A DNA stretch of 63,645 nt, filler included, from Hausera hauseri (Eukaryota), in the NCBI GenBank assembly GCA_046269625.1. It is 11 parts of 11 records of this genome, joined end to end, with 100 filler letters (N's around TTAATTAATTAA, not from the genome) between each part and the next. Parts side by side here need not be neighbours in the genome. Positions count along the whole stretch, not along the records: positions 59,419 to 63,645 come from JBJURY010688660.1; 10 more parts are not named here. One strand, given 5' to 3'. This document shows positions 5,041-63,645 of the stretch, one piece after another. Every line of letters begins with the position of its first letter. Within the stretch, counting starts at the first letter, position 1. A program made the translations under genes and the position numbers. Below the pieces are notes generated by a model. That model saw nothing but the letters and a program-made list of their open reading frames with translations. It had not been told where the DNA came from and made no database searches.

Positions 5041-5315
5041 AAAGGAACCGAACTCACGCCTTAAGACGTATAAGGGAACGTGGAGGTAGTGTCGACTTTT
5101 TTACTGACCAGCGGCACGTAATTGGGTTTTGTGGTCAGTAAAACGCCAGGCCGCCTTTACTTTCCCAGAGAATCTCTCCGGTACACATTTTTCTAGGTTG
5201 CGTGAACTCCTGGAGCCGTTTTTTGGTCGCAAAAATTCAACCCTCCACAGCTGGGATCGAACCCCCGATCACTGATTAAAAGCGGACCGCATTACCACTC
5301 AGTCATCGCGGTCCC
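5041..5315 (-). mobile_element. tRNA-derived SINE with a Nin-like conserved central domain
   Basis: Minus strand starts GGGACCGCGA-TGACTGAGTGGT (A box) ... GGTTCGATCCC (B box), then AAATGTGTACCGG...GTAAAGGCGGCCTGGCG...CTGACCAC...GTGCCG..TACCTCCAC...TATACGTCTTAAGGCGTG, resembling the invertebrate Nin-domain SINE core. Possible ACGTA target duplication (5031-5035 / 5316-5320). Confidence 0.75.
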
Positions 5316-5339
5316 ACGTACAAACCACGTAATAACTAC

Positions 5340-5985
5340 AGACAAAAGTCCAATGGTAAATAGATGTCTACAAATAATGTATTCAGAATTAGGATGTGTC
5401 AGCTACCAGGAATGCTGACATTTGTAAATTACAAGCGATCGCATAATACCACAATACATTCTACAGTACAAGTGGTAATCAAAAATGAAAAGACAGAAAG
5501 GACAACAGGACGGTGAAAAATGCCAGCAGATACACAAGGTGGCTCACAACATATTATGTTAAACCAGCTGCAGATATCAAAACATGACACAACCGACGAT
5601 TGCTACGAAACCACATACATAAAGTATACACTAACATTTAGCTAACTAGAAAAGTGGCATGTCATTGTAATTAATAAAGAGGACTCTGCGGTGTTATATT
5701 GTACCAATCCTTCTGTATGGTTGCGAGTCTTGGGCATGAAAATTCTTCCAGTCAACAGAGATATGGTTTCTCTGAATAGAATATCTGCAGAACTTGGTCA
5801 CTACAGGCAAAATATTACGACATAAAAGTAGTGGGCAACAAAGATTGAAGAGCCTTGATGGTTGGCACGAATGGCTCAGAAATAGGGCCTAGTCAACGGC
5901 AGAGATGACTGTGGGGCCAGGTATCGCGAGAGAATAGTCATATGACTGCCAACGCTGGACTGCTCGACACTTTATTACAATGATG
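5340..5985 (+). mobile_element. RTE-clade non-LTR retrotransposon 3' fragment, heavily degraded
   Basis: Reads KRTLRCYIVPILLYGCESW..STEIWFL..LQNLVTTGKI..GQQRLKSLDG..MTANAGLLDT, typical of the RTE ORF C-terminus. Confidence 0.7.
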
Positions 5986-6148
5986 AACAGTAAAACAGCC
6001 GTTACTGTTATCAGTAAGTATCGACTCCAACACATGTAGAGGTCTACTGCATCCAGAATGTTCCTGCTTTCACTGTTAAAACTGGCATGGCTATTAAAAT
6101 TAGTTGCCAAGCCAGTAGGCGAGTTACCTGCAGTTCAACGGATTTTTT

Positions 6149-8223
6149 ATGTCCAGCTTGATGCTGTCAATGGCTTGGCAAGAAATCTCCTTATTCGGAA
6201 CAAACACTCTCCAAATTTGCCTCAAGTTGCCCACTGACATCGTCATCATCAACCCTAAACGAAGGGTCATACCACCACAAGGAAATCAATCCGCCATAAA
6301 TCAATTAGCCTCAGAACAACTCTTCACATTCAAAGATTCTTCACAACTCGGACTTTCGCGAGGTATCTTGTCGTTGGGAAACGCCAAAATAAGTAGACCT
6401 AACTTTCAACAAGGATCAGCCACCGAAATACGAAGAAAGTCATTTACTTTCGATGACCTTCCACAGCAAAAAAGGTCAAAACTTCAAGATCAGTTAGTTG
6501 ACAATCTGAACGAATTGGAACAAGACAGAATAATCAACCGATCATGAGACGAACTGGCTAAGAAATTCATAAAAATCTATGAAACAGGACGCAGTTTGTT
6601 TCCTTCCAAATTCTATCATCGAATTCTAGAAATAGCAGAAAATTCTACCGACTTAATCTACCCAGAATGTTGGTACATCGATAATGGTCTCAAAACTATG
6701 ACCATAAACAATCGCTCATTACGAATTTTGACTATCTCCAGTCCGTTATACAATGTTAACCTCAACAAGATACTAAATCGAGATTCACCTTTCGGAAAGG
6801 TAATGATACATTTAGCACAAGGGAAGATCCAATTTCGAGCTGAAACAGATGTTTATGAAGCTTTAAACCTTCGAAGTACATTGATAAATTCCAGAACATC
6901 TATGAGAATCAAATCACCAGCATTTGCCACTCAAATCTATTTCAAAATCCTCCAACAACCAGTTGTGATCGCTTTCGAGGTATGTCAATATATGGACGAA
7001 CGACTGGGTTTGAAAACTCCAATATTTTATTAAAGAGCAGAAAATCCAACTTCAAGTAATTATCGGCTAACAACAGCCTTTAATTACCGATATCTATCCG
7101 TTTTGTTGCATACGCCTCCAATGGCGATATGCTACCAATTGAAGTGATAATATCCGATCATAACAAATTACAAATATATCAAGCTTATATAAACCCCCGC
7201 AAAAGGATCTCTAACACAAATGAGCATCACCATGGTTTATCCATGGAAATTATCCAACAATCCCAAGACGAGGAAGAAGTACGAACAGAAATAATCAAAT
7301 ACCTGTACGGTTACACAGTAATAAGTGCTAACACCAGCACAATTCTGAAAGCATTACGTATAACTTTAGAATTTGTCTACGAAATATTCGATATTCTCAC
7401 TGCGGAAAACACAAAAAATCGATTTAACGAAATGGAATTTAAAGTTAATTTAACTCAACTCCCTAAAGTCTACAATTTACGATATGAATTCCCAAAGTCA
7501 GCAGAACCTGTTATGCAAGCTATAATGCAGATACATGGTTATTTTGCTAATAATTGCACCAATGAGCAATGGAAATGGGACTGGCTCCCACCAGAAAACA
7601 ATTTGATTAATGACGATGGCTTTATGAAAGTACCAGTAAAGTACCATTCAGATTATCAATATGAGAAAATACGATCAATCCACGAATTACAACTAAACAC
7701 AACTGAATCCACTATCCAAGAATTGACAAGTAACACAAATACTTTGCTAAAAACGACAAAAAATGAAAAAATGATTCGAACAATAGAACTCTCAATACTA
7801 ATCTATGGACAAATGCATCAAATAATTAATGTTCAGTTCATACAAAAGCCTACAGTGGCTATAAATCAACATAATCAAATCCAGCCTAACCCCAGGCTTA
7901 AATCGGCAGTTGGAATAGTGTATAAACATTCCATGAATAATACACTCCATTTGGCGATGGTTGGGGCCCATCTCGAGTCTATTAGAAGTCTCGATCATAA
8001 ACCGGTATTGGTAAACCAACCAATACCGATGCAAATGAATCAAATGCATATCCCTAAACCCAGGGGTAACAAATCAATTAACCTCAGAGGAACTACAAAG
8101 AAAAAATTGAAGATGATACTTTATCAAAAGAATGATCAATTCACCTTAGAAAACCTATACAATATGGAGAAGATGACTCAAACGGAAGAAGTGACTAAAG
8201 ACAATCTAATGATTCAACTGTGA
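6149..8223 (+). pseudogene. Long intronless disrupted ORF with a DEDDh (REX4/ISG20-like) exonuclease-fold domain at ~7084-7530; probable retroelement accessory ORF
   Basis: ORFs 6149-6547 and 6596-7033 share a frame, and one frameshift near 7100 leads into 7129-8223. PIEVIISDHNKLQIYQAYINPRKRISNTNEHHHGLSMEII..EEVRTEIIKYLYGYTVISAN..LKAL fits the REX4-type pattern. No ExoI DxE is visible. Confidence 0.6.
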
Positions 8224-8548
8224 TATCCTATCTTGCTTGTACTTTTTATTGTATAACTCTTTTATTTTATTTTATACCTTTCTATTAACATTTTCATGAC
8301 TATTAAAAAACATTGACAATTCAATAGTGATTTGTTATTTTTCTGATTTCTTTTTCATGCATATTCTTTCATTTACTTTGTGTACCCTGTATTTCATTTA
8401 ATCTGTTACATTATTTAATCTTTGTGTATATATTTTTTTATTTTTCTANNNNNNNNNNNNNNNNNNNNNNNNNNNNNNNNNNNNNNNNNNNNTTAATTAA
8501 TTAANNNNNNNNNNNNNNNNNNNNNNNNNNNNNNNNNNNNNNNNNNNN

Positions 8549-9800: not shown

Positions 9801-12800
9801 CCAACAAGGACGTGCTCTAATTGGCCAAATTTTTATTGACTTGTAAATACACTGTTGTTATTTTTCTTCGTTTTTTGTTTTTATTTGTTTTTGTAATTGC
9901 AGATGATTTGATACGCTTTTCGTCGTTTTTTATCTCATAATGCCAAAATATGGCTACAGTCGTCTATAATAAATTCGACATGATGAAAGTCAAACAGTAC
10001 ATTTTAATGTTCAAATATTCGGTTTAGCAATAGCCCAGTAGTTTGGTTTGGAAATCTTGATTCGGAGTAAAATTTTGGAAGATCCTTGTCTCGTATACTC
10101 ATTATGCCATCGAACGGAATGGGAAATGCGAAAACAGCATATCAGAAACAAGAAATAACAGCATTGCGAAAAATATTATGCACAGTACGAGTTCAAAATG
10201 TTCGTCAAATATTTTGGACAAACAACACGTTATTTTAACATTGAAAACATCGGCGAATGTGATAGGGTCTTTTCTAATCTTTTAACTATACAACAAATAA
10301 CTTCGACGTGTCCAAAACAGTTGTTCAAAATGATTGTTTTTAAGATAGTGCCACATTCGTACTTGGGTCAATTTCCCCAGAAAAGCCTCAATTTTGAAAC
10401 CTTGCTTTTATTTTAATAGTCTATGAATATTTTTTATTGTTGAGAAAATATTTCTGAATTTATAATTGTGTTAATTTGACTGTTGTGTAAATGAAATATT
10501 GATATTGATGTTTTGACAGTTTTCAAATAAGCAATTCAATAATATTTGTTCAAATTGTTCATTTTGTGATGATAGAAATGTGCAATATACGTGAAATAGC
10601 ACAAATTCTACAAGTGTCAGAAGTGGGATTTTGAACAGAAATATGGACTGACGAAGATCAAGCGAAGATATTCCGGATACGCATCAGCATTCTGTTCAAG
10701 GAATTGAAGGCCGTTGTCATTCAGTCGGTCGATCTTAGTTCCAGTCGAACATTTGCCATGAACATGCTCGCCGAGATGCTCAGTCTTGTTCAGAAATCCT
10801 AACACTGCAGTTTTGGCATTGGACCCGGTTGTTAGATGGATACAGGAGTCACAGTAGAGTCCGCTTATTCTTCCTCTTCTCACAACTTTGTATTGATTTC
10901 CTGTTTATATTACAGCCATGCTTCAGTTGACTGAGGAATTATTGCAGGGATGCACTGGTCATACATCGATTACTCTTAATTATAACACATGGAACCTACA
11001 GAATTACGTCGTCGCAGACATATCTCGAAATCGTATAGATTTCAAGCAACAACTGGATGATGTATTATTTAGTTGCTTTGAACAGCCGGTAAAGGCCGTC
11101 GTAACCCTAGAACATCTGATTATTAGACCGAACAACAAACTCAACCGAAAATAGATTAATAATAATGTTTTCGCATCTGAGAAATATCCACCGTACAAGG
11201 ACATGATATCGAGAATTTGGATTCTGTGGAGTCAAGATTCATGACTCTGGCTCCCAATCAGGCCAAACGTCTTTTGGATGGAATGCTGCAGAATTAACCA
11301 CTGGTGGAGTTCTTTGTGCCTCATTTCTGTCCCCATATCGACTCGCCTGACACTCCAGTTATGTATTCCGATGTTTGTTTGGTTCATCAGTTTGGTCGAT
11401 ATTCGACATTTACTATCGTGTCTATTTTAAACAAGTTTAATATGAAGCAATTCGTCGATAATTCACCGACTACATCAACTATGGCAGTTATTATTGAACC
11501 CATCTGCACAGGGTTATCTACAGCTAAGCCGAACAAAACCAAAACTTCGAAAACAGAGGACAGCATTAAACAGATGCATACGGAAAATTTGATCACGATT
11601 GTCTCAAACATTCTCAATGTGTGTTTACCGACTGTGTTAGCATGATTTAGGAAAGATTGTGCCAGATATGTTCTGTAACTCAGATTCTGGCCGGTGGCAA
11701 CTCTCTGCGTCCATGACACTAGTGTTGCACATGGTGAGTTGCCGTTGACAATAGACGAGATACGAATGGAACTTGACACATTCGGTCAATTGGTCAATCA
11801 GTTCCGTTTTGACGATGTTACATGCCAGAAATCTCTATGGCCATGTATATCTTTATGGATACTTCACGCTATACTCATTGGTGAAACTGATGCACGATGG
11901 GGTAAAAATGATTAATGTGTGCAAATTTGTCGTCAACGGTTTTTTCATATATCTTTTAAAGATAAATTTTATTTCCTGCTGTTGCCATATTTTTTGTCTG
12001 TCGATATACTGTTGATTTTTATTACCCCAATCAATTTAAGCATCGCGATAGCGCCTTCCGTGTCAATTCGCCCGACGTCACTGAAGTCATTATATTTCCG
12101 AATTCATCTATTCCTCTTGTAAATGTGAAGGAAATTTTCACTTCAAGGAAGAATTTTCCTCCTTGAATTTATTAAAGTATTGCTTATTGTAGCCGGTAAA
12201 ATTTCTATACTCGTTGAAATGGTGTATTTCAATTTATCCACATGGAGAGCTGCGTTGTTTCGCTTATTTTACAACTGTACAAATTCCGAGAAATGTTTTG
12301 AAACTATGGCCCAGCTTTTACTTCTTTACCAACATACCTTGCACGTGAAGTTGAAACTAATATTTGGTGTTTTTCTCGACAAAATTGAAAGGTACTCCAA
12401 GTTTAAAAAATTCCCTTCTATACGTATTGACATTCAACGGCGTTGGAGAGTTATTATCCTTTGAAAATTTTGATGACGACGGGAAAATTATGATACATTT
12501 CGATATCTTCCATCCAAATGTTGTTTTGCTTTTTCCCACTTGGGCTGCTGCGCAGATTTGCACCCGTGCACAATTCATTGGAAAGGAATTGCTACCCTTT
12601 ACGACAAAATTTTCGTAGAACAGACACAAACCGAAATTAAGGTCGAAATTCCTTAAAATTCTGTATTCCTGAAGCATCAATTCTTTCTTTATGACGTTAT
12701 TTCCACATTTTTCGTGCCCTTGGATTAAAACTTGCTGTAAATTTGATAAAGACATTAGGCAAGACACGGAGCCCGTTTGTTCTTTGATTATTAATTCCCT

Positions 12801-13403
12801 CAAAGATATCATCTGGGGATTTATATCGATTCGGTTACCCGATGATTCGCTGCATTATATTCCATCTCTGCCCCTAATCAAAATTCAAACTACTTTTCAA
12901 AAAAACTTACCACATTTAGTCCCTTCGGAATATCTTCCCGTAACATCGATTACTCACATAGTGTTTTAGTTTTCTTATCTGGCCGAGTACACGTGGAACT
13001 GATAAAGAAAGTAATAAATACTTCCCTTGTTAAATAGTTTTTGATTTTGCCCAATACGTGTGGTGATTTGACGAAATGTTTTTATCGATATCATCGATGT
13101 TTCTTGTTAAATATGTTCATAATGGAGTAAGTCTACGTGAATGGTTAAGTAATACGCGCAGCAGTTTTGCTGAGTTTCTTGTCACCATTGTTTATNNNNN
13201 NNNNNAAGAAAAATGATCATAACATTACCAAATTTTTTGAACAATTTTGGAATTTTCGACACTCATTTGTCAACGACATCTACCGGATACGTCAAGACTT
13301 TTATTCTTTCGACAATGCGCTTTATTATTTTGGAAGGCAGTAAAAAGTTTCTATTGACACTATCCCGTCAATTGTTTTTCCCCATGGAAATACGATTGGA
13401 CAA

Positions 13404-20720: not shown

Positions 20721-21850
20721 TCACTCGACTAGATTATCCTTATTGACGATGTTTGAGAATTCGCTGAGGTTCAGATACTCCCGTGGAGTGTATGGCAGGC
20801 AAATATTCGATGTGGACGAGTCTGAGGATTCGGTTGTTTGGGCTTTATTGACGACATCAGCGAGTCCGTCTGTTAGTCGGTCGGTACGGTTGCTGAGACA
20901 ATTTTGAGTGGTTAGTTGCACCGAGTGGGAATGGCTGGTCATTGACTGCAAAAGGTGATTAATCATGGCCAACGATCGTCGCGGTATGTCCCATGGATCA
21001 TCAATGTGGACTTGTCCAGAAAATTCGTAATTGTCGATAGCGTTGACTGGACAGACGGATACACGCTCGGTGAATGCCACCAGATACTGTTGGAACAAGT
21101 CACAATAGGCCATTTTGCCTGATATGATGGTAAAATATTCACGTATCGGTGTGACAACAGAGTCATTGAAGAGGTTAGCCCATTCATCGACTACAGAAAC
21201 GATGGTAACAGATGCCAATGTCACCATGATACTGCAAATGAGTCAATAGCCAGCAACCATTGAGTAAATGGTCTAAACCGCTGTCGGTCGCTGTTTTCAG
21301 ATAATTCATACAGTCGGCAAACTTCTCGCCTCTCACCAGCGCTGCAACAAGACAGAGGATAAATTCTCATTGATAAGTGATCAGTTGAACTGAGGAATCA
21401 ACACCAATTTGCAGCAGCTCCAGCAACGATGCCAAAACGAACTCAGTTTCCGACAGTATTAAAAGGTTTGTGAAAACTGGCCTCAATGAGTCCATATGGG
21501 ACTCGAACAAATATTTGACTTCCATCATTAGCCACTTCAGTAACTTATGGATTTCAAAAGTTATCTTGTTCTTTCTAAACGGATTAAGGTGGAAAGACGA
21601 GTGAATATCAAAATAGTTGGCATATATTTCTTTCCTCTCGAAGAATCTCTGGTATGGTATGTTCCCGAGTGTTAGTAACAAATGGACCATTTGGTATATG
21701 GAATATAACCGGAGTTTTATCATCACGTAGATGAAATATCAGTTCAGCTATATCATCTTCAAGACCCTATTCAAGATTTTGGTGCAACCTTTTTACAATA
21801 TATTCAATATTTCTTGACACGTTGTCATTCTTCCATATTGTAGTTAGTGG
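20721..21850 (-). pseudogene. Unidentified decayed coding fragment(s)
   Basis: ORFs 20721-21227 and 21367-21726 have protein-like composition and lie on the same strand as the Ig fragments. No family was recognised. Confidence 0.3.
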
Positions 21851-22089
21851 AACATAATGTACAAATACATGATGTAGACAATCATCCCCTTTTGTATAAA
21901 AATGTTATGGGTGTTTCTATGCGTTCTACTAATCCATCAACTCCAACGTTATCACGAAACAACAATTGTCGAAAGAAATTGGGTTTTGATTTATCCCATT
22001 TAAAATTAGTTGAAGATACTCTTCTAACCTCCAGTAAAAATTCCACAGATTCCTGTCTAACAACTATCAACATCTTCCGCCAAGTTTAA

Positions 22090-23145
22090 GAAACAAGACG
22101 TAAACTACTGGTCTGCAGAGTTTGAAACACTAGCCGAGTAAGTACCGTGATTGGATTCTTCAAAATTCTTTATGTATAAATGTTCGCATCCATTTTGAAC
22201 CTTTTGCGTAACTCGTGAATTTAGATCGTTAATCGGAAAGCCGTTTCGGTATCACTTTAAGTTAGGAATAGGACTTCCAACCGCCGAACAGTAAAGTTGT
22301 ACATCGGATCTAGCCGTAAGCCTTTGGTCTTTTAATTGTCTTGTAAATTCAGGAATGTGTCGAAGAGAATATCTAACCCCATCAACAGTTTTCGGTTGTG
22401 GTTAGACCAGTAGACAAAATGTCTGTCTCAGTTACTACACTTCCCATAACGTTTGTTGCAATACACGATACCGTTATTGTCATTGAATGACTTCTTATGT
22501 ACGATCTATTGATATTATATGTACTCAATCCGGAATTTTCGACGAAAGATGTATGTAGGACCTTTTCCGGCAATTGTCTACGATTTACAAACCATCTAAC
22601 ATCTGGTAAAGGATTTCCTTCAACACATACGGCCAGTGATAAATCTCTCTGTCAGAAACGGTAACAGCGTTAAATGTCTTGGAAAATCGTGGTGTTACAA
22701 AACAAGGATCTGGGCAAACTTCTGAAATTCCTACGTTTGCCGAACATGAATCAGATCCAAAACCATTAGACATGGTAAGTGTATACAAACCAGCGTCTTC
22801 CATTGTGCAATTTTCAATTAACAGTTTGACATTGTTGTCATTTTCTATTTGAGAGTAATGAGTGGAAATAAAATCGATGGTTTTTTTATTTAATTGCCAA
22901 CGAATTTGAGATGTAGGAATATCACAAATTTTAGTGCCCAATGACATTTTCTTTCCGCTAAGTGTTATAAAATCGAGGATTGGTAAAATGATACGTGGTT
23001 CTTTACTTTCAATTTTTACTAATTTGGTTTTTTCGAGAATTATTCCACTCTTTATGGTTGTATTTCGTAAAAACATTACAAGAATTAATTGTGTATCCGG
23101 CTTCATTGCAAACTTCAACAGAGTACGTTTTAATAGTCAGACTTT
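22090..23145 (-). pseudogene. Tandem I-set immunoglobulin domains (titin/obscurin/MLCK-like), disrupted
   Basis: TSQIRWQLNKK..KLLIENCTMEDAGLYTLTMSNGFGSDSCSANV; PRFSKTF; VSCIATNVMGSV; PEFTRQLKDQ..VQLYCSAVGSPIPNLK*YRNG..LYIKNFEESNHGTYS. Contains stops and frameshifts; no introns evident. Confidence 0.8.
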
Positions 23146-44540: not shown

Positions 44541-45860
44541 CTAATAGTAATAATGGTAATAAATTACTTCATGGTACAAAGAGGAGGAAGAAGAAGAAGA
44601 AGGTTTTATTTGAACAATGATGGTTCCGTTTTTCATTATTTCAACCTCGGTATCAAATACACCGTAAATATACATCACGGTAGATTGCTCCAATGCTTTA
44701 GCAAAGTGAACCTCCAATTGTAGGTTTCCCTGCTGAGGTAATTGAGCCTGCTCAACGTCATAGTCAGGAGCCAGAACAAATGTGAAGAATGGATAGGTGG
44801 ACTTGAACAAATCCATAGATATGCCATTGTTGATATTTTTGTTGAGCAAACCCATGTTGCACACGATAGATTGCATATATGTGTAAACGTAATCGCCGGT
44901 CTTATAATCCTGCTGGTATGTCTCAACGAAATCCGCATTTCAACTCAAGCTGATGTAATTTACACTGCTATTGGTAAAGGTTTCCGAATCGGTAATATAA
45001 CTTCCCGTTTGTTGAACAGTCGTTTGAAATGTAACGAGCACAAATTTCGTCAATCGCATGTCGACAAACAGTGCATCTTTGTAAAACGTAGCGAAACCTT
45101 TCAGTATGATGCAAAAGACGAGTTCTGTGAGTTGCACCGGGTAACACGCATTTTGTCTTTCCAAGCCCAATCGAAGTTCCATGAGCACAGATGGTTCAAC
45201 CTTTACTCGACGTATGTATAATCGTACCTCGGTAATTTCCAGTATGGGTTTAAGCTGTGCAACGGCAGTTTTTAAACAAAAGACGTTGTTGCTACGTTTG
45301 AGCTGAATCATGGCTTTAGCACCGGAAAGTAGGTATTTCGGCTAATTAAAAAAGTCAAAATAAAGCGGTCCACACATTGTAAGTGGTTTTGATTCTGCCA
45401 CCCATGCCTGACGGTTTGCAGCAGTGGCGTAATATCCGATGGTTTTCGTCAAATGAGTCGTTTTTGTGTTTATGCTGTAATTCAGAGCCGTTTCAATGAG
45501 TGCTTTGATAATGTATAGACTGGTGTCGCCTTTGATTTTGACGCTGTTCAGAGTTAAGGAAGCTTCCTGGAACCTTGTGAGAAAAAAGTAATTGGCCAGT
45601 GTGACAGTGTCTGTTGCAGCGGGAACCGTTTATGCATCTTTTTTGACAATGACTTTTACATAAAGTAGCGTATCGTTCAAATACAGGTATTCATTGTCCG
45701 ATGTCATAATGTTGAATTGAATGTCAATGATATCATCCGTTGAAACCGAATCAGCGGGGTAGATTTCTTCAAATGTCGCATTGTCAAGAACAATTTTTAG
45801 GACTACTTTGATGAATATACACAATTCAGATTTTGCAGATGTCATTTGTCTATTTGTCAA
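44541..45860 (-). pseudogene. Polinton major capsid protein (PY)
   Basis: AKSELCIF..FEEIYP..IQFNI..EYLYLNDTLLYVK; PLYFDFFN*PKYLLSG..IQLKRS..FCL; LYIRRVKV.PSV; GNLQLEVHFAKAL..VMYIYGVFD. Confidence 0.88.
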
Positions 45861-45954
45861 TCAATCGATCGAAAATCTTACGAGGGCGAAGTTTGTTTAT
45901 AGTTAATGAGCTCGATGATGATCTATGGCGTTTTCTCAAGCCACTGCCAGCGAA

Positions 45955-46222
45955 TTATTTCTTGACCGACTCAACGACTCCCGGTTCAGCGCTTTTTATT
46001 TCTGACAAGGCGTGTTTTATCAATGATGGTAAAATCGATTTGTTTTCATATAGTGCGTCCTGTGCTGTTTTTGCTGCCACGACGCCAACACGCTTCAATA
46101 CCGGAAATGCTAAACATTCCAATGTACGCAACCATCCAGAGCCATACTGTTTAACAAAGAAATATGGCAATTCACCGCCCTTCTGGGGTTTACTGTAAAT
46201 GGAAACGAATTCAGAATCAATC
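45955..46222 (-). pseudogene. Small basic Polinton ORF with Q-x-G-x-G motifs (core/cement-like protein)
   Basis: YSKPQKGGELPYFFVKQYGSGWLRTL..LAFPVLKRVG..AAKTAQDAL; sits in its usual position immediately before the MCP. Confidence 0.65.
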
Positions 46223-47287
46223 TTGTTGAATTCGACGGAAATGAAGAGTTAGACTGGTTGTGGTACCGTACGGAAATTCAATAAGGTAGCCCGTGTCACA
46301 TCGGATATTCACTTCAACATTGTTTATAGATGTAGATGCCACAGGTAGGTACATTGGAATATCGAGCTTGACAGTGACATTGTCGCCAGTAGTATATCTG
46401 CTGCTTTCCGGATAAAATGCACGGAGTAGCGATACACGTATTCCACCGACCAAAATCGGTTCGGTGACGTACACGTAAATGTTCCTTTGACTTAGACCAG
46501 TTTTCAGTTTGGTTTTATGTGTTGCAACATGTGCCGTCGCCGCCGTCGATGCCTCAAACCGCTGATTTGCAAAACCCAATACCATGGCAAAAGCTTTGTC
46601 CAATGAAATGTCAACAACATCCTTAGCCAGTTCAAATTTAATGTACCCATTTGCATCTGACTCGAAAACATTAAATATCGCCTTGTACTTTTGATTTGAA
46701 GAAGAAAAGTGTTGACAGAGCTGTGCTACAGATTCGCAATAGACATGGTCTCCAATGGATACGTATGACGTTGACACCCTTGCTGTTGTATAGGTAAATT
46801 TCACCGTTGTTTGCTAATATACGGAACTTAATCTATGAGCAACTATTTTCACTTTTAATATTTGTACCTTTGTGCTCTGTATTTTTGAATCCCAATTTCT
46901 GCACCATCTCAGGACTGAAAGGTAACAGTAAATGCAAAATCTGTCATAAAATGTAAGTATTCCCATAAAATATAAACGCCGATCTTGCCGAATATACCGT
47001 AATTTTCTTTGGTCGTGCAAAAGCCCGAGTCTCCAGTTGTTATTTTATTGTTAGTAAGTGTCATAGAACAAGAATGTTTTGGTTTTAGTAACAGTCTTGT
47101 ACGTTATTTTCATACTACCTTTCAATATCACCAGTGTGTAAGGAAAGTTAAATTCAGTTAGTGCAACCTCCCATTTTTTAGCAGATATATCTAAAGGATT
47201 GTTCCAATCTACAACGTATTCATCGGCTGAATTGTTCGGACGAGACGTCGGACAACTGTTGCTCGGCAAAACCACGTAAATACTCAT
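46217..47287 (-). pseudogene. Polinton minor capsid (penton-like) protein, copy 2
   Basis: N-terminus IYVVLPSNSC..NNSADEY..PLDISAKKWEVALTEFNFP; C-terminus VTEPILVGGIRVSLLR..PMYLPV..INNVEVNIRCDTGYLIEF..LTLHFRR. Confidence 0.85.
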
Positions 47288-47379
47288 GATCTCGATGTTG
47301 TTGTTGTTGATGATGATAGTGATGACGCAGTTTGTTTACTATCGACGACGACGAAAATGTAGAATCAAATATGTCTTGG

Positions 47380-48345
47380 TTTGAACAGAAATTTAATGGG
47401 TTTCCAAAATTTTTCTACCATATACACTGAAATACTGTGCACAACAATGTTAGACAACTATAAATACATGGGCCGTATGATATTTACATGAGCAGTTTCG
47501 GCCGGTGTTTTGTAAGTGTCCGAATCCAGTCCAATAGAAGCCAATAGTTGTTTACGATCTCCGCCAACATATACGGATTCGGTTAGATCCGCTAAAATAT
47601 TGATTCGATAAAATGCCTTGTAGAGACGTGGTTTGTGTTTAGCAACAATGGACCATCCGCTGCCGGTTTCACCGAATTCTCGTTTCTTAAAACCCAGATT
47701 CCGTGCTAATAGTTTATCAAAGGCAAAATATGTAACATTATCGTGTAGTGTAAACGACATACGACCATCAGAGTTTGATTCAAATGCCTTGAGAGCCAAT
47801 TTAGCTACTGCCTTGATGGTTGCACACAATTCTGTTTTCGTTTCCGTAAGAAAACCAATTCCTGTTCTATAAAAGTAAAAGAATAATTCAGTCTTTTTCC
47901 GGTTCACTGTAATATCGGTGGTTTTCGCAGTGGAGAAATTCAATTTTTCACTAATTATACTCTGTCCACCGAGTTGTAGACCTTTCAAGCGCACATAGGG
48001 AGATGATTGAAAATCCCATGCCTGAGCGTCGGCTAGTGATTTAAATTACAATTCAATTGGATGTTTGTGTTTTAGCACAAATCGGCTGTTTAAATGAAAC
48101 ATAAACCGGGAAATCTTGGCACTTGTAATTGCGAATGTGAAATGTTTCATTAGAGGCTCGGACTAACTACAAACGACTAGATGCAGGAGATTGTCTTACT
48201 AAAATATAGTATATTCCACTGTTCTCACGTATTGTTATTGGTGAAAATGTAAATATGAATTCCACCAAAGACACTTCCCAAGCTACCTGGCGTAAGTCAA
48301 GTGGCTGGTCCAACGCCATGATAAACCGTTCTGATAATCTGTTAC
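47380..48345 (-). pseudogene. Polinton minor capsid (penton-like) protein, copy 1
   Basis: FIMALDQPLDLRQVAWEVSLVEFIF (~48325-48255) and LARNLGF..INILADLTESVYVGGDRKQLLASI..RPMYL. Confidence 0.8.
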
Positions 48346-48811
48346 TATCAAGTATGCATGAATAATATCCGGTAGTACATCTATCCAGCGTTTGTTGCCT
48401 TGCTTCGTAAAGAATTTGTTTAGGTGACCGTGCAATGTTTGATTAAATCGTTCAACGAGTGCAGCCTTAATTGGAAAAACACCGAGTTGTGATTTATACT
48501 GAACCGTTTCAAGACCGCTGAAACGTGGGCGACGTAGAATTCCTTACCCAAATCCGTTTGTAAATGCTTCGGTTGTTGTTGTTGTATCATAGTATGTACA
48601 GCATCGGCAATCTCTTTAGCGGATTTAGATTTCACAGAAATTGCAGATGCAAAACGACTAAACACATCAAAGCATGTCAGCACGTATCGATACCCATTAT
48701 TGATGCTGGCGTACGGAATCATTTCCATCATATTCATTTGCCATACATTATTTACACCGGCAGCACGGTATGCACGAGTTGGAAACCGCCTTCTTATCGG
48801 TTTGTTTAGGC
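48346..48811 (-). pseudogene. Polinton retroviral-like (rve) integrase, C-terminally truncated
   Basis: NNGYRYVLTCFDVFSRFA..VKSKSAKEI..PKHLQTDLGKEFY; KAALVERFNQTL; RWIDVLPDIIHAY. Confidence 0.9.
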
Positions 48812-49454
48812 NNNNNNNNNNNNNNNNNNNNNNNNNNNNNNNNNNNNNNNNNNNNTTAATTAATTAANNNNNNNNNNNNNNNNNNNNNNNNNNNNNNNNN
48901 NNNNNNNNNNNGTTTATTCGTTGGAGCGACATTTTCTTAAAGAAGGTGCATATGATGTAAATATGCAAATCTGTCAGGTGAACATTGATGTCAAATCAAA
49001 TATTCTATGATGAGTAATACAAAATTCTATGATGAGTAATAGAATTTTGTACTTGTATTACTAATTTTCATAAAAAAACGCCGACTAGCAGTAGTCTTTT
49101 ATGAGTATTTTAAAGTAAGAAGCAGCATTATGAAACTAGTTACTCCTTTTGTTGACAGTAATTATTGTAAACTACTTCCCCGCAATACAATATACTAAAT
49201 CATTGATTTTAATATTGAAGTATTTATATCTATGGTATGAGAAAATAACATTTTTAAACAAAACTCACAATAATAATATTTAGTCTTCATTGCTGTTGTG
49301 ACATTTGGCTTGACTCTTAGGCGACGCACTGGAAATCTCATTTTAATATTGCATTCTAATACTACTGATATCGACAAGTTAATATTTCATACTCACAATA
49401 ATTTAGTGATATTTTGTCCTATTACTAATTGATAAAAATTAATTTCACATTTAG

Positions 49455-55003: not shown

Positions 55004-57920
55004 ACATAGCCAAAAATAGCATATTTAGGGTCAAAATCGGTCAAAACACCAAATAATCGCACAACCTATAATATATTCACAAACCCCGTGAAAAATACTA
55101 CTTACCAGCTAAACACATAATTTTGATCCATCTCCCCCTTCGCCCTCAAATCCAGCTACGAAGTTGAAAAAATGCCCTCAGCAAATGTTCAATAATTTTT
55201 GGGTATCTTAAGGGTCGTAGGACAGGTCAATTTTACTACTAGGTTATAGCTCTTGGCCCAACGAATAAGATTTCATATTTTTATTTCCCCTTCGGGCTTG
55301 TTTTTTGCAATGAAGGCTCAATTTGATGAAAATTTCTAAAAAAGTACTCCAAAAGAGGTGAAAATCACCCGTCACCCCCAAATGCACAGTAGATTTGAAA
55401 GCCCACAAAAATACTTCTGACCACCTGAACACAAATTTATCCAACCTCCCTTTACCCTCAAATCCAGCACCTAATGTGAAAAAATGTCATTCTGTATATA
55501 TTACTTCTCCCATCGAATTTTGTTTCAATAAATCTATTCGCAAATATACTTGTCATAAGTATAACTGATGGCAATTATATAGCTGCTCAAATTCGTTGTG
55601 GCTGGTGCGCACAACTCTTCTGTGCATTTCATTACTTCTTCTATGAAAATTCCCATAATTGCAGAAGATATAATCCTAATCCGGATTAAGCTTTCTTGAC
55701 AGAAGTCAGATCAAATCCCGTTGAATATTTAATTTATGCAGCTCTTTGATGATCAGGCTTTTTATTGTATATTAATTTATATAAAATAATGAACGTAGAA
55801 CATGTGCTCAAAGATCAACAAGAATTCATAAGTTTTAATGTCGCCATAGAACTTCCACATTCCTAAGTTTACTTGCTTGTTGCTTTGTATGGATATTTGT
55901 TTTGAAATTTTGTATTTTGCTTTCGATGTTTCAAATTTCTGTTTCGTAATTTTAAATATTTTTATAAGTAAACAATAATATGTGTTATATATTAGGGTGG
56001 CCCTTAACTTTCTCCCCTATATATAACGTTACACTTGAATTTAAACAAGTTACCTGCAGATTCGGTTTAACGTTCTTGTTAAACGAATGTGCCAATATGT
56101 CAAGATTTATTAATGCAGGTAGGTGAATGCGTATCCTGTGCAAGATTTCAATGTCTAGTCGCTATATAATTTAAGTGAAAATTTTATCCTAGGGTAACTC
56201 TAATCGACTTTAAAACTATTCAATTTATTTTAAAAAAACAATCACTGAAAACAACTGTTTACACCTACTACTTACAGATCATGTACTACAATTTCAACGG
56301 CTAATAATATCGATCTATGACATATGTGGTGCGTTCAATAAGTACCCGACCTGAGGCAGAAAACAATTTCAGGATCACATAATTTTATTACACAAAAAAA
56401 ACAAAATTATAAAGTACAATTTAATCAAAATATCGGATTCACGCAATAAAATCAGCAAAATAACTACAAGTGCCAAAAAACGAATCACTGCAGAAGTGAT
56501 CAGCACTTGTAGTCAAGAAGCAAAATTAATAAGCAAAATCTGTGGATTTAAATGCGTTTGTTTCAATCCACAGTAAAAGACCTGAACATGATATTCAAAG
56601 AAACAAAACGATGAAGCAAATCACAAGAGAATAAATGTCAGAAACTCTGAAAATCAAGGGAAAGGGCCAGATGACAGCTATCAGTAGCGAAAAAACAAAA
56701 AATATGTAGCAAGCCCCGGTAAACCGATAGTCAGGAGAATCGAAAAGGTGATTGCGTCTATGCGTACCACAGAGACTAGAGGGAGTGCGAAGCCCACTTA
56801 ACCCTACGTTCCCCGTCAATCTTGATGAGACCATCGACTTGACTTCGGGATACCAAAACCCGAAAGCACCTCAACTTACATACACGGAAGGAAGCGCGAG
56901 CTCTGTCATAACAAGCAGTATTACCAATAACTCCCGACAAAATGGATATTGTATCGGAGAGTCCAAGGCGATGACTCCGGGGTACAACATTCCAAAAATG
57001 CTCCTACCAGCACACGCTGAAACAGAAGTGAAAACCGACAGCCGTGTCGCTTCCACGGAACAAGTGCAAACAGAGGATCGACAACTCCTAACCCGGCGAG
57101 AAACCGTTTCACGCGGAAGAAGACGCTGCAGCAACGTCCAGCGAGCTCCGTACCGATTTTATTCGGATTACCGAACGGTACTTTAGCTATTACAGCGCAG
57201 CTGTGTCATGCGGCACCTTACCAGTTTAAGGGATGACGATCCCTATTCCCTTCCGGTCGACACTCTCGACCGAATCTACATCGACGGGGAGAATAGGCGA
57301 CTCTTGATTCATCGGTCGTCCTATCAGTCTTCATAAGACTGGTGGCTGCAACAGACCGTCTCTTTGAATCGCTGGTTCCATCCGAGAGCAAGCTGATTTC
57401 AGGCAACCAAACCAACAAAACACGGCGACTAACGACGTCGAGCTCCAGCTCGGACGATTTGCCGATCGCTCCTCGGCAACTTCGCAGACCCGAACCGTCC
57501 CGATCCTCTACCGAGGACTCATACGCGTCAGCGGATAAACCGAAAAATTATAATAAACTTTTTTCGAGTTACTTGTTTTTTTGTTCCTTTTATTCGCCCA
57601 CGTCGTTTTATTCGACAGTCTTGTGAAATCTGCACGCCATGTTGTGCATAGTTCTTTTAGGAGCATAACAAAAGCTTCTAAACCTACTCCATTTCTGCTT
57701 TATTTTTAATTTGGGGTCTGAAAATTCGTTTTTGCGGGTTTCTCGTGACTCTCTAGCTATCGCAAAAAGAATTATTCAAATCCCGAAATTCCAACATAAT
57801 AAATTTACTGGTTAGAAATTACTGCGGTTATAATAAAGTCAAAATTCCATGTTAGAAATTTATGAATCTGTTGTACTCTATTGAAACTAACAAAAACAAA
57901 ATAGACCGAAGCCGACAGAA

Positions 57921-59318
57921 TTGATGAAAAATATTGCAAGACGATATTGCTGCAAAGCGATGGGTAAACAAGTTCCAGAAGCCAAACCGTTGCTACCCGG
58001 TCAATGTTTCTGCTGCGGCGAGCACGGCCACAGAAGGTTTGAATGCCCCTTACGTCATAGATGTTTGATATGTGGACAAGAAAGTCATCGTTATAGGATG
58101 TGCCCCAGGATTCACAGGATCAGAAACCAAGAGAAGCCGGTTGTGTGTCTACAAGAAGAATTTTCTGATGATTTTGACGTCACGTACGAATATGATGATA
58201 TTTTAGATGCTGTAGACGAGGAGAGGTCACAAAAATGGGTGGCAGCCCACTGTGCCTATCTTGACAATCGGGTTGCAGCAGTAAAGGAAAAAGAAGCCAA
58301 AGATAGACAGAGGAAGCCGATGATGTATAAGAAGTCAGACGGTCGGTGGTGGAGTACCATGATGTGTAGAAGAACAGAAATTAAAATTCTATGGGACTCT
58401 AGAGCTTTAGTTTCGGTGATAAGTGCAGAATGTTGGAGAAAGATTGGACAGCCAACCCTTTTAGCATCGGATGTTCGTTTAATTGGAGTTTTTCGCCAAC
58501 TAATGAAAGTTGCATGGGAACATGTAAAGTGCGTGCAAAATGGGGAGTTAAAGATGTAGTACTAACTACTTACGTGGTGAAAAAGCTATCGCCTGCCTTT
58601 ATTGGAGGAATCAACACAATGGATAAGTTTGGAGTAAGGTTAGTGGGGGTTGCCGTATTGGACTCACGAAAGACGGCACAAGAAGTGACGACAGAGAAGC
58701 GGACGCAGTTGGCCTTGAAAGTTGTCGCAGCACACCCATCGCTCAAAAGGATAATTCAAATGTATAGTGATATTTTTATGGCTTCAGCTTTTGACATAGG
58801 CCATACAAAGATCGTGCAACATCACATTCAGACAACAGGGGACCCAATTGCACAGCCGCCCAGGAGACTTCCGATTCACTTGGAGCCAAAGGTTGAAAGA
58901 TTGATCGACCGAATGCTAAACAGCGAAATTATCAGGACGTGCCAAAGCCCTTGGAATACACCACTGGTAGTGATATCTAAAAAATACGGGTCCATTCGCA
59001 TGTTCATGGACTTTGGGAAGTTGAACGCAGTTACGGAGAAGTTCACGTTTCCATTTCCGGATATTTATGGACTCTGGGATGCTTTACAAGGTGCGACTGT
59101 GTTTTCAACAATAAATCTCGAAAACGCATACTATCAGGTAGAGTTAACAGAAACCTCAGAAGTGAAGACAGCGTTTAGCACAAAGATGGGTCAATTCTGT
59201 TTTAATCGATTGCCGCTTGGGTTATGCACGGCTACTGCGATGTTTCAAAGATTGATGCACATAATTTTTGAGGGAATGCTGTATAAAGGGGTTGTAGTAT
59301 ACCTGGATGACATATTGG
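57921..59318 (+). mobile_element. Second Ty3/Gypsy lineage: gag with two CCHC knuckles, protease and RT (cut by the linker)
   Basis: CFCCGEHGHRRFEC and CLICGQESHRYRMC; ILWDSRALVSVI; SPWNTPLVVISKKYGSIRMFMDFGKLNAVT; KTAFSTKMGQFCFNRLPLGL; VYLDDIL. Confidence 0.93.
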
Positions 59319-59838
59319 NNNNNNNNNNNNNNNNNNNNNNNNNNNNNNNNNNNNNNNNNNNNTTAATTAATTAANNNNNNNNNNNNNNNNNNNNNNNNNN
59401 NNNNNNNNNNNNNNNNNNAAGGATTAAAACAAAAAATTAAAACAAAGAATCTATTACATATCGCGGAAGAAGCCTAAAAGTACTTTATTTAATTTAATGA
59501 AAGGTCTGAAAACAAAGGTGAGAAATGCTAGTAGATTTAATGTTGATTCTGTCATTTGATAATGTATTTTCATGTACATAATACTAAATTTGTACGATTT
59601 TTTTGTCGCCACAACCTTATGTAACAATCTTCTGCTTGTTAATCAAATAGATTTTCAACTCCATGCTTACTCATATGTGAAACTAAAAATTAAAAACTGC
59701 ATAAAGTTTACATAATGCTAATGTGTTTAATCCTCACTAATTCACATGGGAAGAGACTTATTATCTGAACGCGTGGAATTAATGGGAAAAAAATTTACTT
59801 CGACAGATGTTTTAGTGCAATAAATCGGGCGGGAGAGA

Positions 59839-60072
59839 TGTGAGATCCTTACTTAATCCTAACTTATAGGTAATGTGTGGGGGACAGTGTCCTCTAATGC
59901 TGATTTTAGATTATTACTCTCTACGATTTACTTTGCACTCAGTTACTTAAGATTAGACAGGATGCCATCGGGTAGGTTTGACCTGGCCGGCTTGTGCAAC
60001 CAAATTACTTACGGGTTTATTTAGTTATTGACAGTTTACTTAAGGATAAAACATAAAAGACAGCATCTCACG
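59839..60072 (+). repeat. Putative LTR preceded by a polypurine tract
   Basis: GGGCGGGAGAGA directly precedes TGTGAGAT (59839); the inverted terminus ATCTCAC(G) is at 60065-60072. Confidence 0.5.
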
Positions 60073-60479
60073 GATACAAAAACAACAGTATGTAATTCTG
60101 GAAACAAATAAATGAAGAATCCAAAACATAAAAGTTACTATGCGTACGTAATATCAAATGACAGAAGTAATAAGTATCAACGTATTAAATATGATAACCG
60201 TGACAATTAACAAAGAAATAAAAATATATCGCTTACGTCAATGAAGCACATATCACCAGAGTTCAAAAATGTTCGACTAGTTGTATTTTTACACCAATAT
60301 TTATATCCTATTTCACAATCGACTCATCACACAAATAATGAAATAAAAACACAGTAAGCTTATCTTTCATTAAATCCCATTAAGTCTAATTCAGGGAGTC
60401 ATGCAGAAGAAATAAACCAGCAGGAGAAAATCAGTATTCAATTACATTGTAAGTTTATTTGTTTTCAATTTAATTGTTT

Positions 60480-61400
60480 AATTAGCGATCAATCAGGATT
60501 GTTCAATCGGTCAACTTGCTGGGGAGTTAGAAGGAAATTGTACCGAATTTTATTGGCTGGCCGGTAGAGAATGGAAGGTGGTCGTTCTCGAAGCAAATTT
60601 ATACCGTATTCCATCTGGTTTGAAGATTTCGTCATCTATCAATACTTCCTCTATATTAATTCTTCACTTCCTTAATAATGCTTCTTTTGGTCATTCTAGG
60701 ACCCTGTTAGAGGCCGCAGTATCGTTTATGAATTCATCACCCCATCGTAAAGTATTGTAATTGGCATGGTAACATTGTACCAACGCCATGCTACGGAGCG
60801 GCATACCCCGAATTTCATAAAATTTCTTCGCAAGCTCTTTATACGTTGCCGTCTCTAATTTATACTTTTGAATTACCTCTTCGCGATACACCAGATCACG
60901 AACTCTGATCATTCGTCGTAATGGACATAGGAGGTGTTTTTGTAACATCTCGAGAACTGCGGCTCCGACTACCAATTTTTCAGTTAAGATGATGGAAACT
61001 TTTTAATAGAAGACATTGCCATCCATCTGGTTATTAATATTTAATTATGTCAGACCAGTGATGAGAATCAAAATTGTTTATTCGTTGTCTGGAGGTTACT
61101 ATGGTATAGAGTAAGGTGTTTCCATGCAAATCGATAATAGAACACCCCAACGGGCTAAGTTGATTATTTTGGTCGTAAACAAGATTAACAGCTACAAATA
61201 CGATGTCGTTATTGGTAATGTGGGCTAATCGTCTGTAGGGTTTTCCAACGTATTTCAGATAGTCTGGTTCGACAAGGTCAAAACATTTTCCAGGTGGAGG
61301 CGTGATCCAATTGGCTTATGCCCTTATAAATTCCACTCCGATCATAATTTTATTGGTTAGTGTACGAATTTTGAGATCATTTTTCCTGACCAGATCAAAT
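60480..61400 (-). pseudogene. Second, highly diverged DEDDh (REX4/ISG20-like) exonuclease-fold ORF, disrupted
   Basis: Hand translation: DIVFVAVNLVYDQNNQLSPLGCSIIDLHGNTLLYTIVTSRQRINNFDSH/TGLT*..KVSIILTEKLVVGAAVLEML..RVRDL..TYKELAKKFY, following the pattern VALDCE..ARVSIVN.HG.VLYD.YVKP..V.DY....SGI...KV..LL.G.ILVGHAL. Confidence 0.65.
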
Positions 61401-61930
61401 TGAATTGTCACTCCAGATTAATCAAGTCACCTGATTGATTTGTCTTTTTATCTTTTGTTTTTATTTGAAATTTTCCAATTATGTCGTAGATGTTGATGCT
61501 ATGGAATTTGTCGGGAAGACTAATTATATCCTGGAGAAGAAATGAGGTCACCTTTGTTATCTAGATCAGAGCTAACTACTGATTACCGTATCCTTTTAGA
61601 TTGTTGGGGATCTGTTGTACCATAGAGTAGTTGAGACTATAGGTATTTTCACTTATTACAATATGGTATTGATTAGAGGAACTGGCGTTCATGAGATGAT
61701 TTTTGGCATTTTCATACCATTTTTGATGCGTTGTACTGATTGTATTTCCATTAGGGTGATTACTACAAATAGAAATGTCAAATACCCATAGCTTAACAAT
61801 GATTCAATGGTTATCCTAGTAATTTTGGTAATCGTTGTTATAGCAAGTCTATTATATTTCAAGGTAACTGAGTAACGTTCAGTTATCCTATTTTTTGGAT
61901 TGCGTCGACAACAATCCGTTGAAGCCATCG

Positions 61931-62489
61931 TCAATTTGGATTATCTGTATCCAAGATATTTGGTATACGTCGCATGTCTATTCTAGCCCTGTTTGTTCTA
62001 CGACGCTTTCGTGAGTAAGAGACTATTTTTACGGTAAATATTATACCTATTGCTATTATTATGGGGGTTATTGTACATATTAATATTATCTCTAACCGTG
62101 AATGCAAATACGTCGTACGTGAGGGTTTTAAGGTTGTGACTACCTCAACGGTGAACTTTTCCTGTAATTTTATTCTTACTTCATTTCTAGTCAGAAAGTA
62201 AAGACCTTTGTTGATATTATCTCATTATTGTCGTTATAGAGTTGCAACATTATTGTACATACGGTATTTGGGGTCAATGCCACACAGGGCACAATTAAAT
62301 AATGTGGTGTTACTACTCCTTTGGCGACGATGACGTCTCGTGTCTTACAGGTAAAATTTACTTTAAAGAAATCAAGGTCTGGTTTCACAGATATTATTAG
62401 GGAAGTCGGGGCGGTGGTAACTGTTACGTTTTCCCATATGGAGCATTTTGTCGGTAATATGATGTGTATGGTTAAATTAGAATAGTCAT
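61931..62489 (-). pseudogene. Small intronless type-I membrane protein: signal peptide - FN3-like domain - Thr-rich stalk - TM - basic tail (two frameshifts)
   Basis: MTILI/TIHIILPTKCS-IWENVTVTTAPTSLIISVKPDLDFFKVNFTC..LTPNTVCTIMLQLYN..VFTF/LTRNE..VVTTLKPSRTT..IILICTITPIIIAIGIIFTVKIVSY-SRKRRR..DNPN*. Confidence 0.55.
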
Positions 62490-62714
62490 CTCCCTTTCAT
62501 TACATTTATTAGTTAGCAAGGAGTACACATATGATGCTGTGACATTCTTTAGTTCTTCAACATACTCAACTTTATTTCGATATCACACGTACATGGTTGG
62601 TCCTTCTCTTTTTATACTATTCAGAGATTGCCAATATTCTTTCCGAGTAAGCTTGTAGTCAACCATATATAGAAGGTGAGTCAAAAGTAACAAACTGAAA
62701 AGATAAGAATTTTC

Positions 62715-63195
62715 AATCTTAGAAATACAATCCATTCTACGGTGTTTTGTCATCGATCAGCAAAATTTTCGATTCCGACCAGATACCATGCAGCCGGCTT
62801 TGAGGCGAAGAACTCAGACACCCTTCTCGACTTCGTTAAGGTTCCGGAAAGTTCTGCCGCGAAGTGAGCCATCGACTTGAAAAGATGGTAGGCCGAAGGA
62901 GCAATGTCTGGGCTATAAGCTGGATGTGGCAAAAGTTCGATTCCATCCAGCTCCCGAATTTTTTCTTCCGTAGATCGGACGGTGTGCGGCGGAGCATTAT
63001 CTTGCTGAAGCAGAACCCGTTTTCTGTTGACCCTTGCCGGGTACTTTCGGACTAAGACCTCATACATCCGTTCAAGTTGTTGATATAGCTGTAATGCCAT
63101 GGCCATCTGCGACTAGCTCAAAATGTACTGGACCCTTAAAATTCCACCAAAAACATAACATGACCTTGTGTTCGAACCGTCCCCGTCTCGCAACA
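62715..63195 (-). mobile_element. mariner (DD34D) transposase C-terminal remnant
   Basis: KVMLCFWWNFKG; VLLQQDNAPPH; LLPHPAYSPDIAPSAYHLFKSM. Confidence 0.92.
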
Positions 63196-63645
63196 GGTTT
63201 TTTGGGGGTTGAATTTTTAGGCAGTTGACTTTTTGGGTGGTTGACCTTTTTGAAGGGTTGCGACTTTTTTTGGGGTTGACTTTTCTGGGGGTTGTGACTT
63301 TCTTCAAGGGTTGTGACTTCTTTGGAGATTGACTTTTTGCGGGTTGACTTTTCTGGGGGTTGTGACTTTTTTGAAGGGTTGTGACTTCTTTGGAGGTTAA
63401 TTTTTTGGGGTTTTTTCTAGGGGTTGTGACTTTCTTGAAGGCTTGCGACTTCTTTGAAGATTGACTGTTTTGCGGGTTGACTTTTCTGAAGGGTTGGGAC
63501 TTTTTTGGGGGTTGACTTTTCTGGGGATTAAATTTTCTGGGGGTTGACTTTTGTGGGGGTTGACTTTTTTGAAGGGTTGGGAATTTGCTGCGGGTTGACT
63601 TTTTTGGGAGCTGACTATTCTGGGGGTTGACTTTTTTGGGGGTTG
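63196..63645. repeat. Degenerate 16-19 bp tandem array (GGGGTTG[TG]ACTTTTYT), running to the window end
   Basis: Recurrent ggggttgactttt / agggttgtgactt units interrupt the mariner. Confidence 0.92.

Follow-up and report, generated by a model that had tools for sequence, protein, structure and literature searches.

Among the LTR retrotransposons described so far, the closest systems are the bdelloid Juno and Vesta elements, in which ORF3 encodes a DEDDy exonuclease with intact catalytic residues, and the small membrane ORF3s that bdelloid LTR elements carry in the same slot, as set out in the text of Rodriguez et al. 2017 (PMC5408684). The statement on which the original prediction had built, that some LTR elements carry captured DEDD exonuclease and membrane ORFs, agrees with that description. 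PMC6338049 counts DnaQ-like domains among the known accessories of LTR elements, and both non-autonomous LTR derivatives and giant elements with extra ORFs are described in PMC6431247. The main text of an errantivirus survey (PMC13524379) contains neither the word 'exonuclease' nor the word 'fibronectin'. In the literature searched, neither an FN3 surface protein nor a dead DEDDh ORF was found in any LTR element; Repbase, supplements and subscription journals may hold one. This suggests that the general idea of an exonuclease or membrane ORF3 in LTR elements is already known, while the pairing of a dead DEDDh protein with an FN3-like protein was not found in the literature.

We examined such a pairing in a stretch of Hausera hauseri DNA. 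The window (the whole stretch that was analysed, 1-63645) is made of 11 contigs of 4-12 kb joined by artificial N-TTAATTAATTAA-N linkers; these carry stops in all frames, and parts that lie across a linker are not linked. The cassette of two genes studied here sits on the last contig, 59419-63645, and no DNA similarity was found between this contig and the rest of the window, Gypsy contigs included. The features of the repeat that bears it are collected in Table 1.

Table 1. Features of the cassette, of the repeat around it and of a distant relative (positions in the window)
Feature	Position	Strand	Basis or remark
LTR-like terminal segment	59724..60053	-	Depth step and loose ends; sharp outer end at 59724
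Short conserved non-coding block, deepest of the terminal region	59952..59992	-	Summed depth 3645
AT-rich non-coding stretch, 3' UTR-like, multi-copy	60054..60549	-	Summed depth 36-359 in every bin
Second gene, broken copy: hydrophobic N-terminal segment, middle domain without family, putative dead DEDDh-like domain, short tail	60550..61928	-	
Putative ISG20/REX4-like DEDDh fold without catalytic acidic residues	60747..61207	-	P0002 and profile searches
Hydrophobic stretch close to the N-terminus encoded by the second gene, possible membrane anchor	61743..61799	-	Kyte-Doolittle (KD) 1.85
First gene, broken copy, predicted type-I membrane protein	61931..62489	-	Frame reading, hydropathy, model, Foldseek
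Predicted FN3/Ig-like domain of the first gene	about 62430-62194	-	AlphaFold and Foldseek
Coding-like remnant upstream of the first gene, multi-copy, part of the same element	62490..62670	-	Summed depth 253-846
Mariner/IS630-type DDE transposase remnant interrupting the element	62670..63112	-	Inner boundary inferred
Distant second member of the second-gene family (different contig): ORF 6548-7033, like the middle domain, followed by ORF 7084-8223, like the dead DEDDh domain	6548..8223	+	

The window shows many mobile elements, and its DNA is animal-like by look. On the other contigs, Pfam recognized a tyrosine kinase (E 5e-29), a piece of a TPR nucleoporin (E 3e-20) and a VWD domain (E 2e-9), which makes an animal host likely. 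The vWF-like gene lies on a different one of the 11 joined contigs from the cassette. Gypsy-type elements are common among these contigs (RVT_1 at E 2e-14 in Pfam, and further pol-like ORFs by eye). The RVT_1 match is part of a Gypsy-type pol at 58403-59318, on the contig that precedes the cassette's, where decayed gag (zinc knuckle, E 0.015) and pol together span 56752-59318. A link between the cassette and this pol was ruled out because an artificial linker separates the two contigs. Elsewhere, at 22100-23136 and 20721-21738, there are Ig repeats that by eye look titin-like and decayed, and a pair of unnamed ORFs, upstream of a Gypsy gag and on the same strand; this sequence at 20721-23136 is possibly captured or pseudogenised host sequence. 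Decayed minus-strand coding sequence was also seen between a Gypsy integrase end and gag (10700-12900), a part of which resembles the integrase zinc-binding region by eye, with no Pfam match of note. Two further stretches were recognized by eye, one tRNA-like and SINE-looking (5230-5320), the other a 3' fragment of a non-LTR, RTE-like element (5670-5750); ARAGORN reported no tRNA genes.

We estimated the abundance of the cassette region from the contigs of two public runs, X1 and X2, matched against 59419-63190. Matches came from 1471 of 15,501,002 contigs in X1 and from 142 of 9,551,390 in X2. The X1 contigs were spread widely in likeness (114 at at least 99%, 213 at 95-99%, 468 at 90-95% and 676 below 90%), and 1144 of the 1471 were under 95% alike to the window. 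Up to 50 contigs lay over one site, and the summed depth, which is not a copy number, ranged from 41 to 6093 per bin compared with 5-7 for window-identical contigs. The runs do not count as independent lines of evidence, because X1 may derive from the same sample as the window and X2 includes a window-identical contig. The region belongs to a family of diverged repeats present in many copies.

The repeat has a sharp end, seen when contigs were matched against 59419-60620. Summed depth was 11.6-11.9 at 59583-59705 and 227-331 at 59706-59787, and 11 contigs continue into unlike sequence before 59724 (agreement 0.5, among the 6 of 98 loose-end rows listed). At 59724 the window reads TG on the plus strand and CA-3' on the minus strand, which is the coding strand, with low-copy DNA beyond. 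This terminus is 830 bases downstream of the cassette, and diverged contigs tile the whole distance from it to the end of the second gene. An AATAAG word, resembling a poly(A) signal, is found at 59762, about 35 bases inside the terminus. TG/CA was seen at one end only, and the inner end is not fixed, with minus-strand TG starts at 59937 and 60053 as the candidates; the segment is called LTR-like here. Within it, the deepest block had up to 40 contigs at one site, and 8 contigs diverge before 59952; these 40 bases, shared by far more contigs than the sequence on either side, could be a cis-element common to several subfamilies. Rfam gave nothing at gathering score, this block included, the three matches seen (E 2.6-4.7) being of chance quality.

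The multi-copy state and a sharp TG/CA end with unlike flanks led us to favour an LTR retrotransposon that carries the cassette in sense before its 3' LTR. We consider the locus to be the decayed 3' part of an animal LTR retrotransposon, with the gene pair in the env/ORF3 slot, at a probability of about 0.68. The end at 59724 would then be that of the 3' LTR, and gag-pol would lie upstream, beyond the mariner insertion. TG/CA ends occur in some DNA transposons too. The cassette might be cargo at the end of such a transposon or of an integrated DNA virus (Ginger-like, or Polinton/adintovirus-like). This would fit a repeat of which only one terminus is seen and in which no polypurine tract is found; no 12-mer with at least 10 purines followed by TG occurs in 59680-60600, in a copy that is decayed. 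A purine-rich word at about 59825-59838 (plus strand) was rejected as such a tract, the sharp boundary being at 59724. FN3-like folds are common in DNA viruses, and by eye another contig holds minus-strand ORFs (44541-48863) that we take to resemble the major and minor capsid genes and the integrase of Polintons or adintoviruses; two of these ORFs tested in Pfam had no match, and four tested in PHROGs had no relevant one. The poly(A)-signal-like word fits an LTR better, and so do the loose ends, whose majority cell resembles, two letters beyond the end, a primer-binding site for a tRNA. Such a site is what 5' LTR copies would contribute to the mix of flanks, but the cell is mixed (agreement 0.5) and is a weak sign. 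When the window was scanned for the motif of a corresponding LTR/primer-site junction, matches stayed at chance level (9 against 6.6 expected). We regard the DNA transposon or virus as quite unlikely.

The original prediction had seen here a candidate accessory module of a large retroelement or virus. Membership in a mobile element is upheld by the multi-copy state and the sharp TG/CA end, but 'large' and 'virus' are unsupported, and the completed IMG/VR scans contained no relatives. The RNA-binding or silencing-modulating role that had been suggested is likewise conjectural. Scans of JGI metagenomes found no relative either. A 36-residue match at one GTDB locus (L001) lies inside an unrelated bacterial enzyme gene and was set aside as chance.

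The repeat also reaches further than the cassette. The cassette had been placed at 60480-62489, and the repeat goes on down to 59724 and up to about 62670. The coding-like remnant upstream of the first gene has one stop, is in frame with that gene's ATG and could be assigned to no family; the alignment of one diverged X2 contig runs from 62446 to 62670. There the element is interrupted by the mariner remnant (Pfam DDE_3, E 5.6e-4 for 62753-63112, below the cut-off), whose presumed boundary near 62670 was placed from the extent of that X2 alignment and from a likeness to mariner ends. A degenerate 16-base tandem array of 27 copies (63198-63645) lies between this remnant and the end of the window. 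A physical link of the cassette to pol was not found, and neither gag, pol nor a second LTR is linked to it on the contig, the element being truncated by the mariner insertion and by the end of the contig.

Both genes of the cassette are on the minus strand. The first begins with an ATG at 62489 and ends with a stop at 61933-61931, giving about 186 codons; the reading frame shifts near 62475 and again near 62205, so that three frames are used. A hydrophobic run opens it directly from the ATG, and this putative signal peptide spans one of the frame changes. The predicted membrane span (62089-62033) has a 19-residue Kyte-Doolittle mean of 2.7, and it is followed by an RKRRR basic patch (62011-61997) and a short tail. 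The predicted type-I membrane protein of about 185 residues that had been read through two frame changes was recovered. Its Thr-rich stalk was found in part; Thr and Ser are present, but only modestly (7 of 21 residues). The ectodomain is more than 110 residues long, three N-glycosylation sequons occur in the piece 62496-62194, and there is no Gly at position 2.

A single-sequence AlphaFold model of the piece 62472-62194 (93 residues) had seven beta-strands at a mean pLDDT of 62 (46-62 over five models). When the model was compared with the PDB using Foldseek, the top five matches were FN3 domains or monobodies (E about 0.002-0.003, TM 0.53-0.55), and none reached E ≤ 0.001. An FN3-like beta pattern had been expected, and the model bears this out at the level of a moderate-confidence, single-sequence prediction. 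VIA-align described the model as a generic Ig-like sandwich, with a best Z of 7.2 (rmsd 2.6, 75 aligned) and nothing at Z 8; DUF3244, cytokine receptors and CBM56 were tied at Z 6.5-7.2 (rmsd 2.2-3.1, 70-79 aligned). Among viral structures, the FN3-like matches were weak only. Pfam gave no fn3 or other match at E ≤ 1 for the first-gene pieces, NCBIfam and PHROGs gave nothing relevant for two membrane-gene pieces, and PDB sequence searches with two single cassette pieces returned chance matches only. We consider the product FN3/Ig-like by predicted fold, a candidate member of the FN3 family, and the gene as encoding a predicted FN3-like single-pass surface protein with a signal-like start.

The second gene starts with an ATG at 61928, 3 bases beyond the stop of the first, in agreement with the earlier observation that same-strand coding resumes within a few bases. 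The joints near 61923-61936 were also considered as splicing and rejected, as they have no GT-AG ends. A search of 1.84 billion representative proteins with the C-terminal piece returned one protein at E ≤ 0.001. This protein, P0002 (447 residues, 56% identical), is an unbroken relative and a singleton, so that its support is that of one sequence from one 1561-base ENA contig. Residues 31-447 of P0002 are collinear with 61755-60553 in three pieces (49-57% identity, E 9e-115), without introns. The exonuclease-like part thus makes up the C-terminal half of a single gene that lacks introns and has about 460-490 codons. The exonuclease-like ORF that had been proposed is ISG20/REX4-like by similarity, but it is not a small ORF of its own. 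The description of the cassette as intronless holds for the second gene by comparison with P0002, in a copy more decayed than had been thought, with three frame changes (near 61760, 61412 and 61060) and seven stops in the part mapped by P0002.

Matches to known families were sparse. Among PDB sequences, the top three of four matches to P0002 were ISG20L2 (E 0.0026), the PolC exonuclease (E 0.14) and ISG20 (E 0.14), and with a five-row profile (A2) the match to ISG20L2 strengthened to E 9e-5. Pfam gave nothing at or near the cut-off for eight cassette pieces, six stop-read-through frames and P0002, and NCBIfam and PHROGs gave nothing relevant for P0002. Word-based protein searches with P0002 found only P0002 itself (3250 candidates) and none among shorter proteins (270 candidates). 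For the middle domain of about 200 residues, between the hydrophobic start and the DEDDh-like domain, there was no family match in Pfam, NCBIfam or PHROGs.

The catalytic residues of the DEDDh enzymes were then compared. Counting back without gaps from the ISG20 alignment, with D11 and E13 of ISG20 taken by us as the Exo I acids, the Exo I positions read V-x-V in both P0002 and the window copy. At Exo II, D94 of ISG20 aligns with T315 of P0002, although both P0002 and the window copy have an acidic residue at the position just before; neither has H-x4-D in the Exo III region. Two-metal catalysis is established for DEDD enzymes, and with the Exo I acids, the Exo II Asp and H-x4-D missing it is unlikely here. 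Catalytically dead DEDDh domains also occur in Exuperantia and Maelstrom. A dead active site had been predicted from the window copy, and P0002 agrees with it; the C-terminal domain of the second gene is, judging from its sequence, probably a catalytically dead, DEDDh-like pseudo-nuclease. Residues 4-29 of P0002 are hydrophobic (KD 1.8), as is the corresponding region of the window copy. The alignment of these segments is weak (its score is matched in 19 of 2000 shuffles, as the best of three frames), and BLASTP does not see it; the hydrophobic N-terminus is a possible membrane anchor.

We observed a distant second member of the second-gene family on another contig. P0002 236-378 matched 7105-7536 in ORF 7084 at 25% identity (E 1e-7, 0 of 1000 shuffles), and P0002 64-141 matched ORF 6548-7033 weakly (7 of 1000 shuffles), with a spacing that agrees within 3 codons; ORF 6119-6547 did not match P0002 (627 of 1000 shuffles). 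ORF 7084 was recognized by NCBIfam dnaQ at E 1.5e-4 and by Pfam RNase_T at E 0.065, and its first 13 residues, the Exo I region, hold no acid. The Exo I acids are thus lost in all three sequences (P0002, the window copy and ORF 7084). No membrane segment at KD ≥ 1.8 occurs in 5700-8230, and at this threshold the N-terminal anchor is also absent from the distant member; the pairing with an FN3-TM protein is therefore seen in one family only. A word-based search with residues 1-190 of ORF 7084 found no relative (50 candidates), and AlphaFold of this ORF alone gave no usable model (pLDDT 37). About 190 extra residues follow its dead DEDDh domain (7650-8223); they are absent from P0002 and have no credible family match.

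These relatives also bear on where the cassette's genes come from. In a non-autonomous, LARD-like derivative, the genes would lie between LTRs without pol and be mobilised in trans; an LTR-like end with no pol linked to it is what such a derivative would present. However, an unbroken frame of 447 codons at about 55% identity, together with a member at 25% identity, indicates coding kept over a long time, which is more typical of autonomous lineages, and the mariner insertion hides the upstream part, so that the absence of pol is not shown. We think that a LARD-like origin is improbable. Still less probable is that amplified host genes or processed pseudogenes (a surface antigen family and a REX4/ISG20-like paralogue) were swept into a repeat. 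In its favour, membrane proteins with a single FN3 domain and nucleases of the ISG20 type both belong to the kinds of protein that hosts make, and the copy is dead; against this stand the loss of the Exo I acids throughout and the finding of a single protein among 1.84 billion. The three-base gene spacing, the lack of introns, the very low likeness to cellular DEDDh proteins and the lost acids are better explained by fast-evolving genes of an element than by recent host copies. The outcomes that had been named beforehand as speaking against the original prediction (no FN3 or DEDDh match, or homologues that are single-copy, intron-containing host genes) did not come true.

If the LTR retrotransposon is the correct reading, a subgenomic RNA would serve to express the two genes in the env/ORF3 slot. 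The surface protein might act as an attachment or cell-contact factor and not as a fusogen. The pseudo-nuclease, which its hydrophobic N-terminus may anchor in a membrane, would keep the RNA-end-binding fold of DEDDh proteins and bind RNA rather than cut it; it may cap or tether the element RNA and shield it from host exonucleases, or alternatively recruit particles to the membrane that carries the surface protein. A signal anchor with its basic N-terminus inside would leave the nuclease-like domain facing the lumen, which argues against cytosolic RNA binding. This mechanism of contact by the surface protein and RNA binding or shielding by the pseudo-nuclease is as a whole tentative, and we would sooner expect it to fail than to hold. 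More speculative, and in our estimate unlikely, is the broader proposal that a high-copy animal LTR lineage replaced Env with two parts, a captured FN3 adhesin and a membrane-anchored, dead ISG20-like RNA binder, which jointly protect its RNA and pass particles between touching cells without a fusogen.

It is an open question how LTR retrotransposons lacking Env gain entry to the germline and escape the RNA decay of their host, and sORF2 showed that small membrane ORFs can serve germline entry. If true, the present proposal would add a non-fusogenic candidate for cell contact and a second independent capture of a DEDD fold, this time from the DEDDh branch and as a dead copy of an antiviral-type (ISG20-like) fold. 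The naturally unbroken P0002 allows direct tests of the nuclease and RNA-binding questions. Should the link to pol fail, an orphan gene pair on a repeat would remain.

Compared with ORF3 of Juno and Vesta as described in PMC5408684, the second gene is likewise a DnaQ-superfamily exonuclease gene in what would be the third-ORF slot. The bdelloid ORF3 is RNase D-like, of the DEDDy type and intact, whereas the domain found here is closest to ISG20L2/ISG20/DnaQ (DEDDh) and has lost its Exo I acids; unlike in Juno and Vesta, it is fused behind a domain of about 200 residues without family and follows a separate gene for a membrane protein. Its similarity to the DEDDh exonucleases of the ISG20/ISG20L2/REX4 type (PDB 7yw5, 1wlj) extends over the core strands and the Exo II region, but the catalytic residues are not kept, there are extra N-terminal domains, and it is borne on a repeat. 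The dead DEDDh domain at the C-terminus of amniote PML, compared here by its description in PMC10123124, resembles it in keeping the DEDDh fold with changed catalytic residues and a non-cutting role; PML, Exuperantia and Maelstrom are encoded by host genes, and some of them act against retroelements.

The first gene resembles ORF3 of Vesta4 and Vesta6c (PMC5408684) and the MDG1-group, FAST-like sORF2 (PMC11952523), as these are described, in encoding a short membrane protein with no homology to Env and a basic patch after the span. In Vesta4, ORF3 combines a coiled coil with two membrane spans (PMC5408684), compared with one span here. The ectodomain of sORF2 is only about 30 residues long, and the protein is often myristoylated (PMC11952523), whereas the present protein has a signal-like start and an FN3/Ig-like ectodomain of about 90 residues. 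Env and other class I fusion glycoproteins, by the account in PMC5408684, have about 500-600 residues with a furin site, a fusion peptide and heptad repeats in the ectodomain; here there are about 186 codons and a predicted all-beta fold, and the basic site, unlike the furin site of Env, lies after the membrane span. Judged by its size and predicted build, the product of the first gene would thus be neither an Env nor a fusogen of the sORF2 type.
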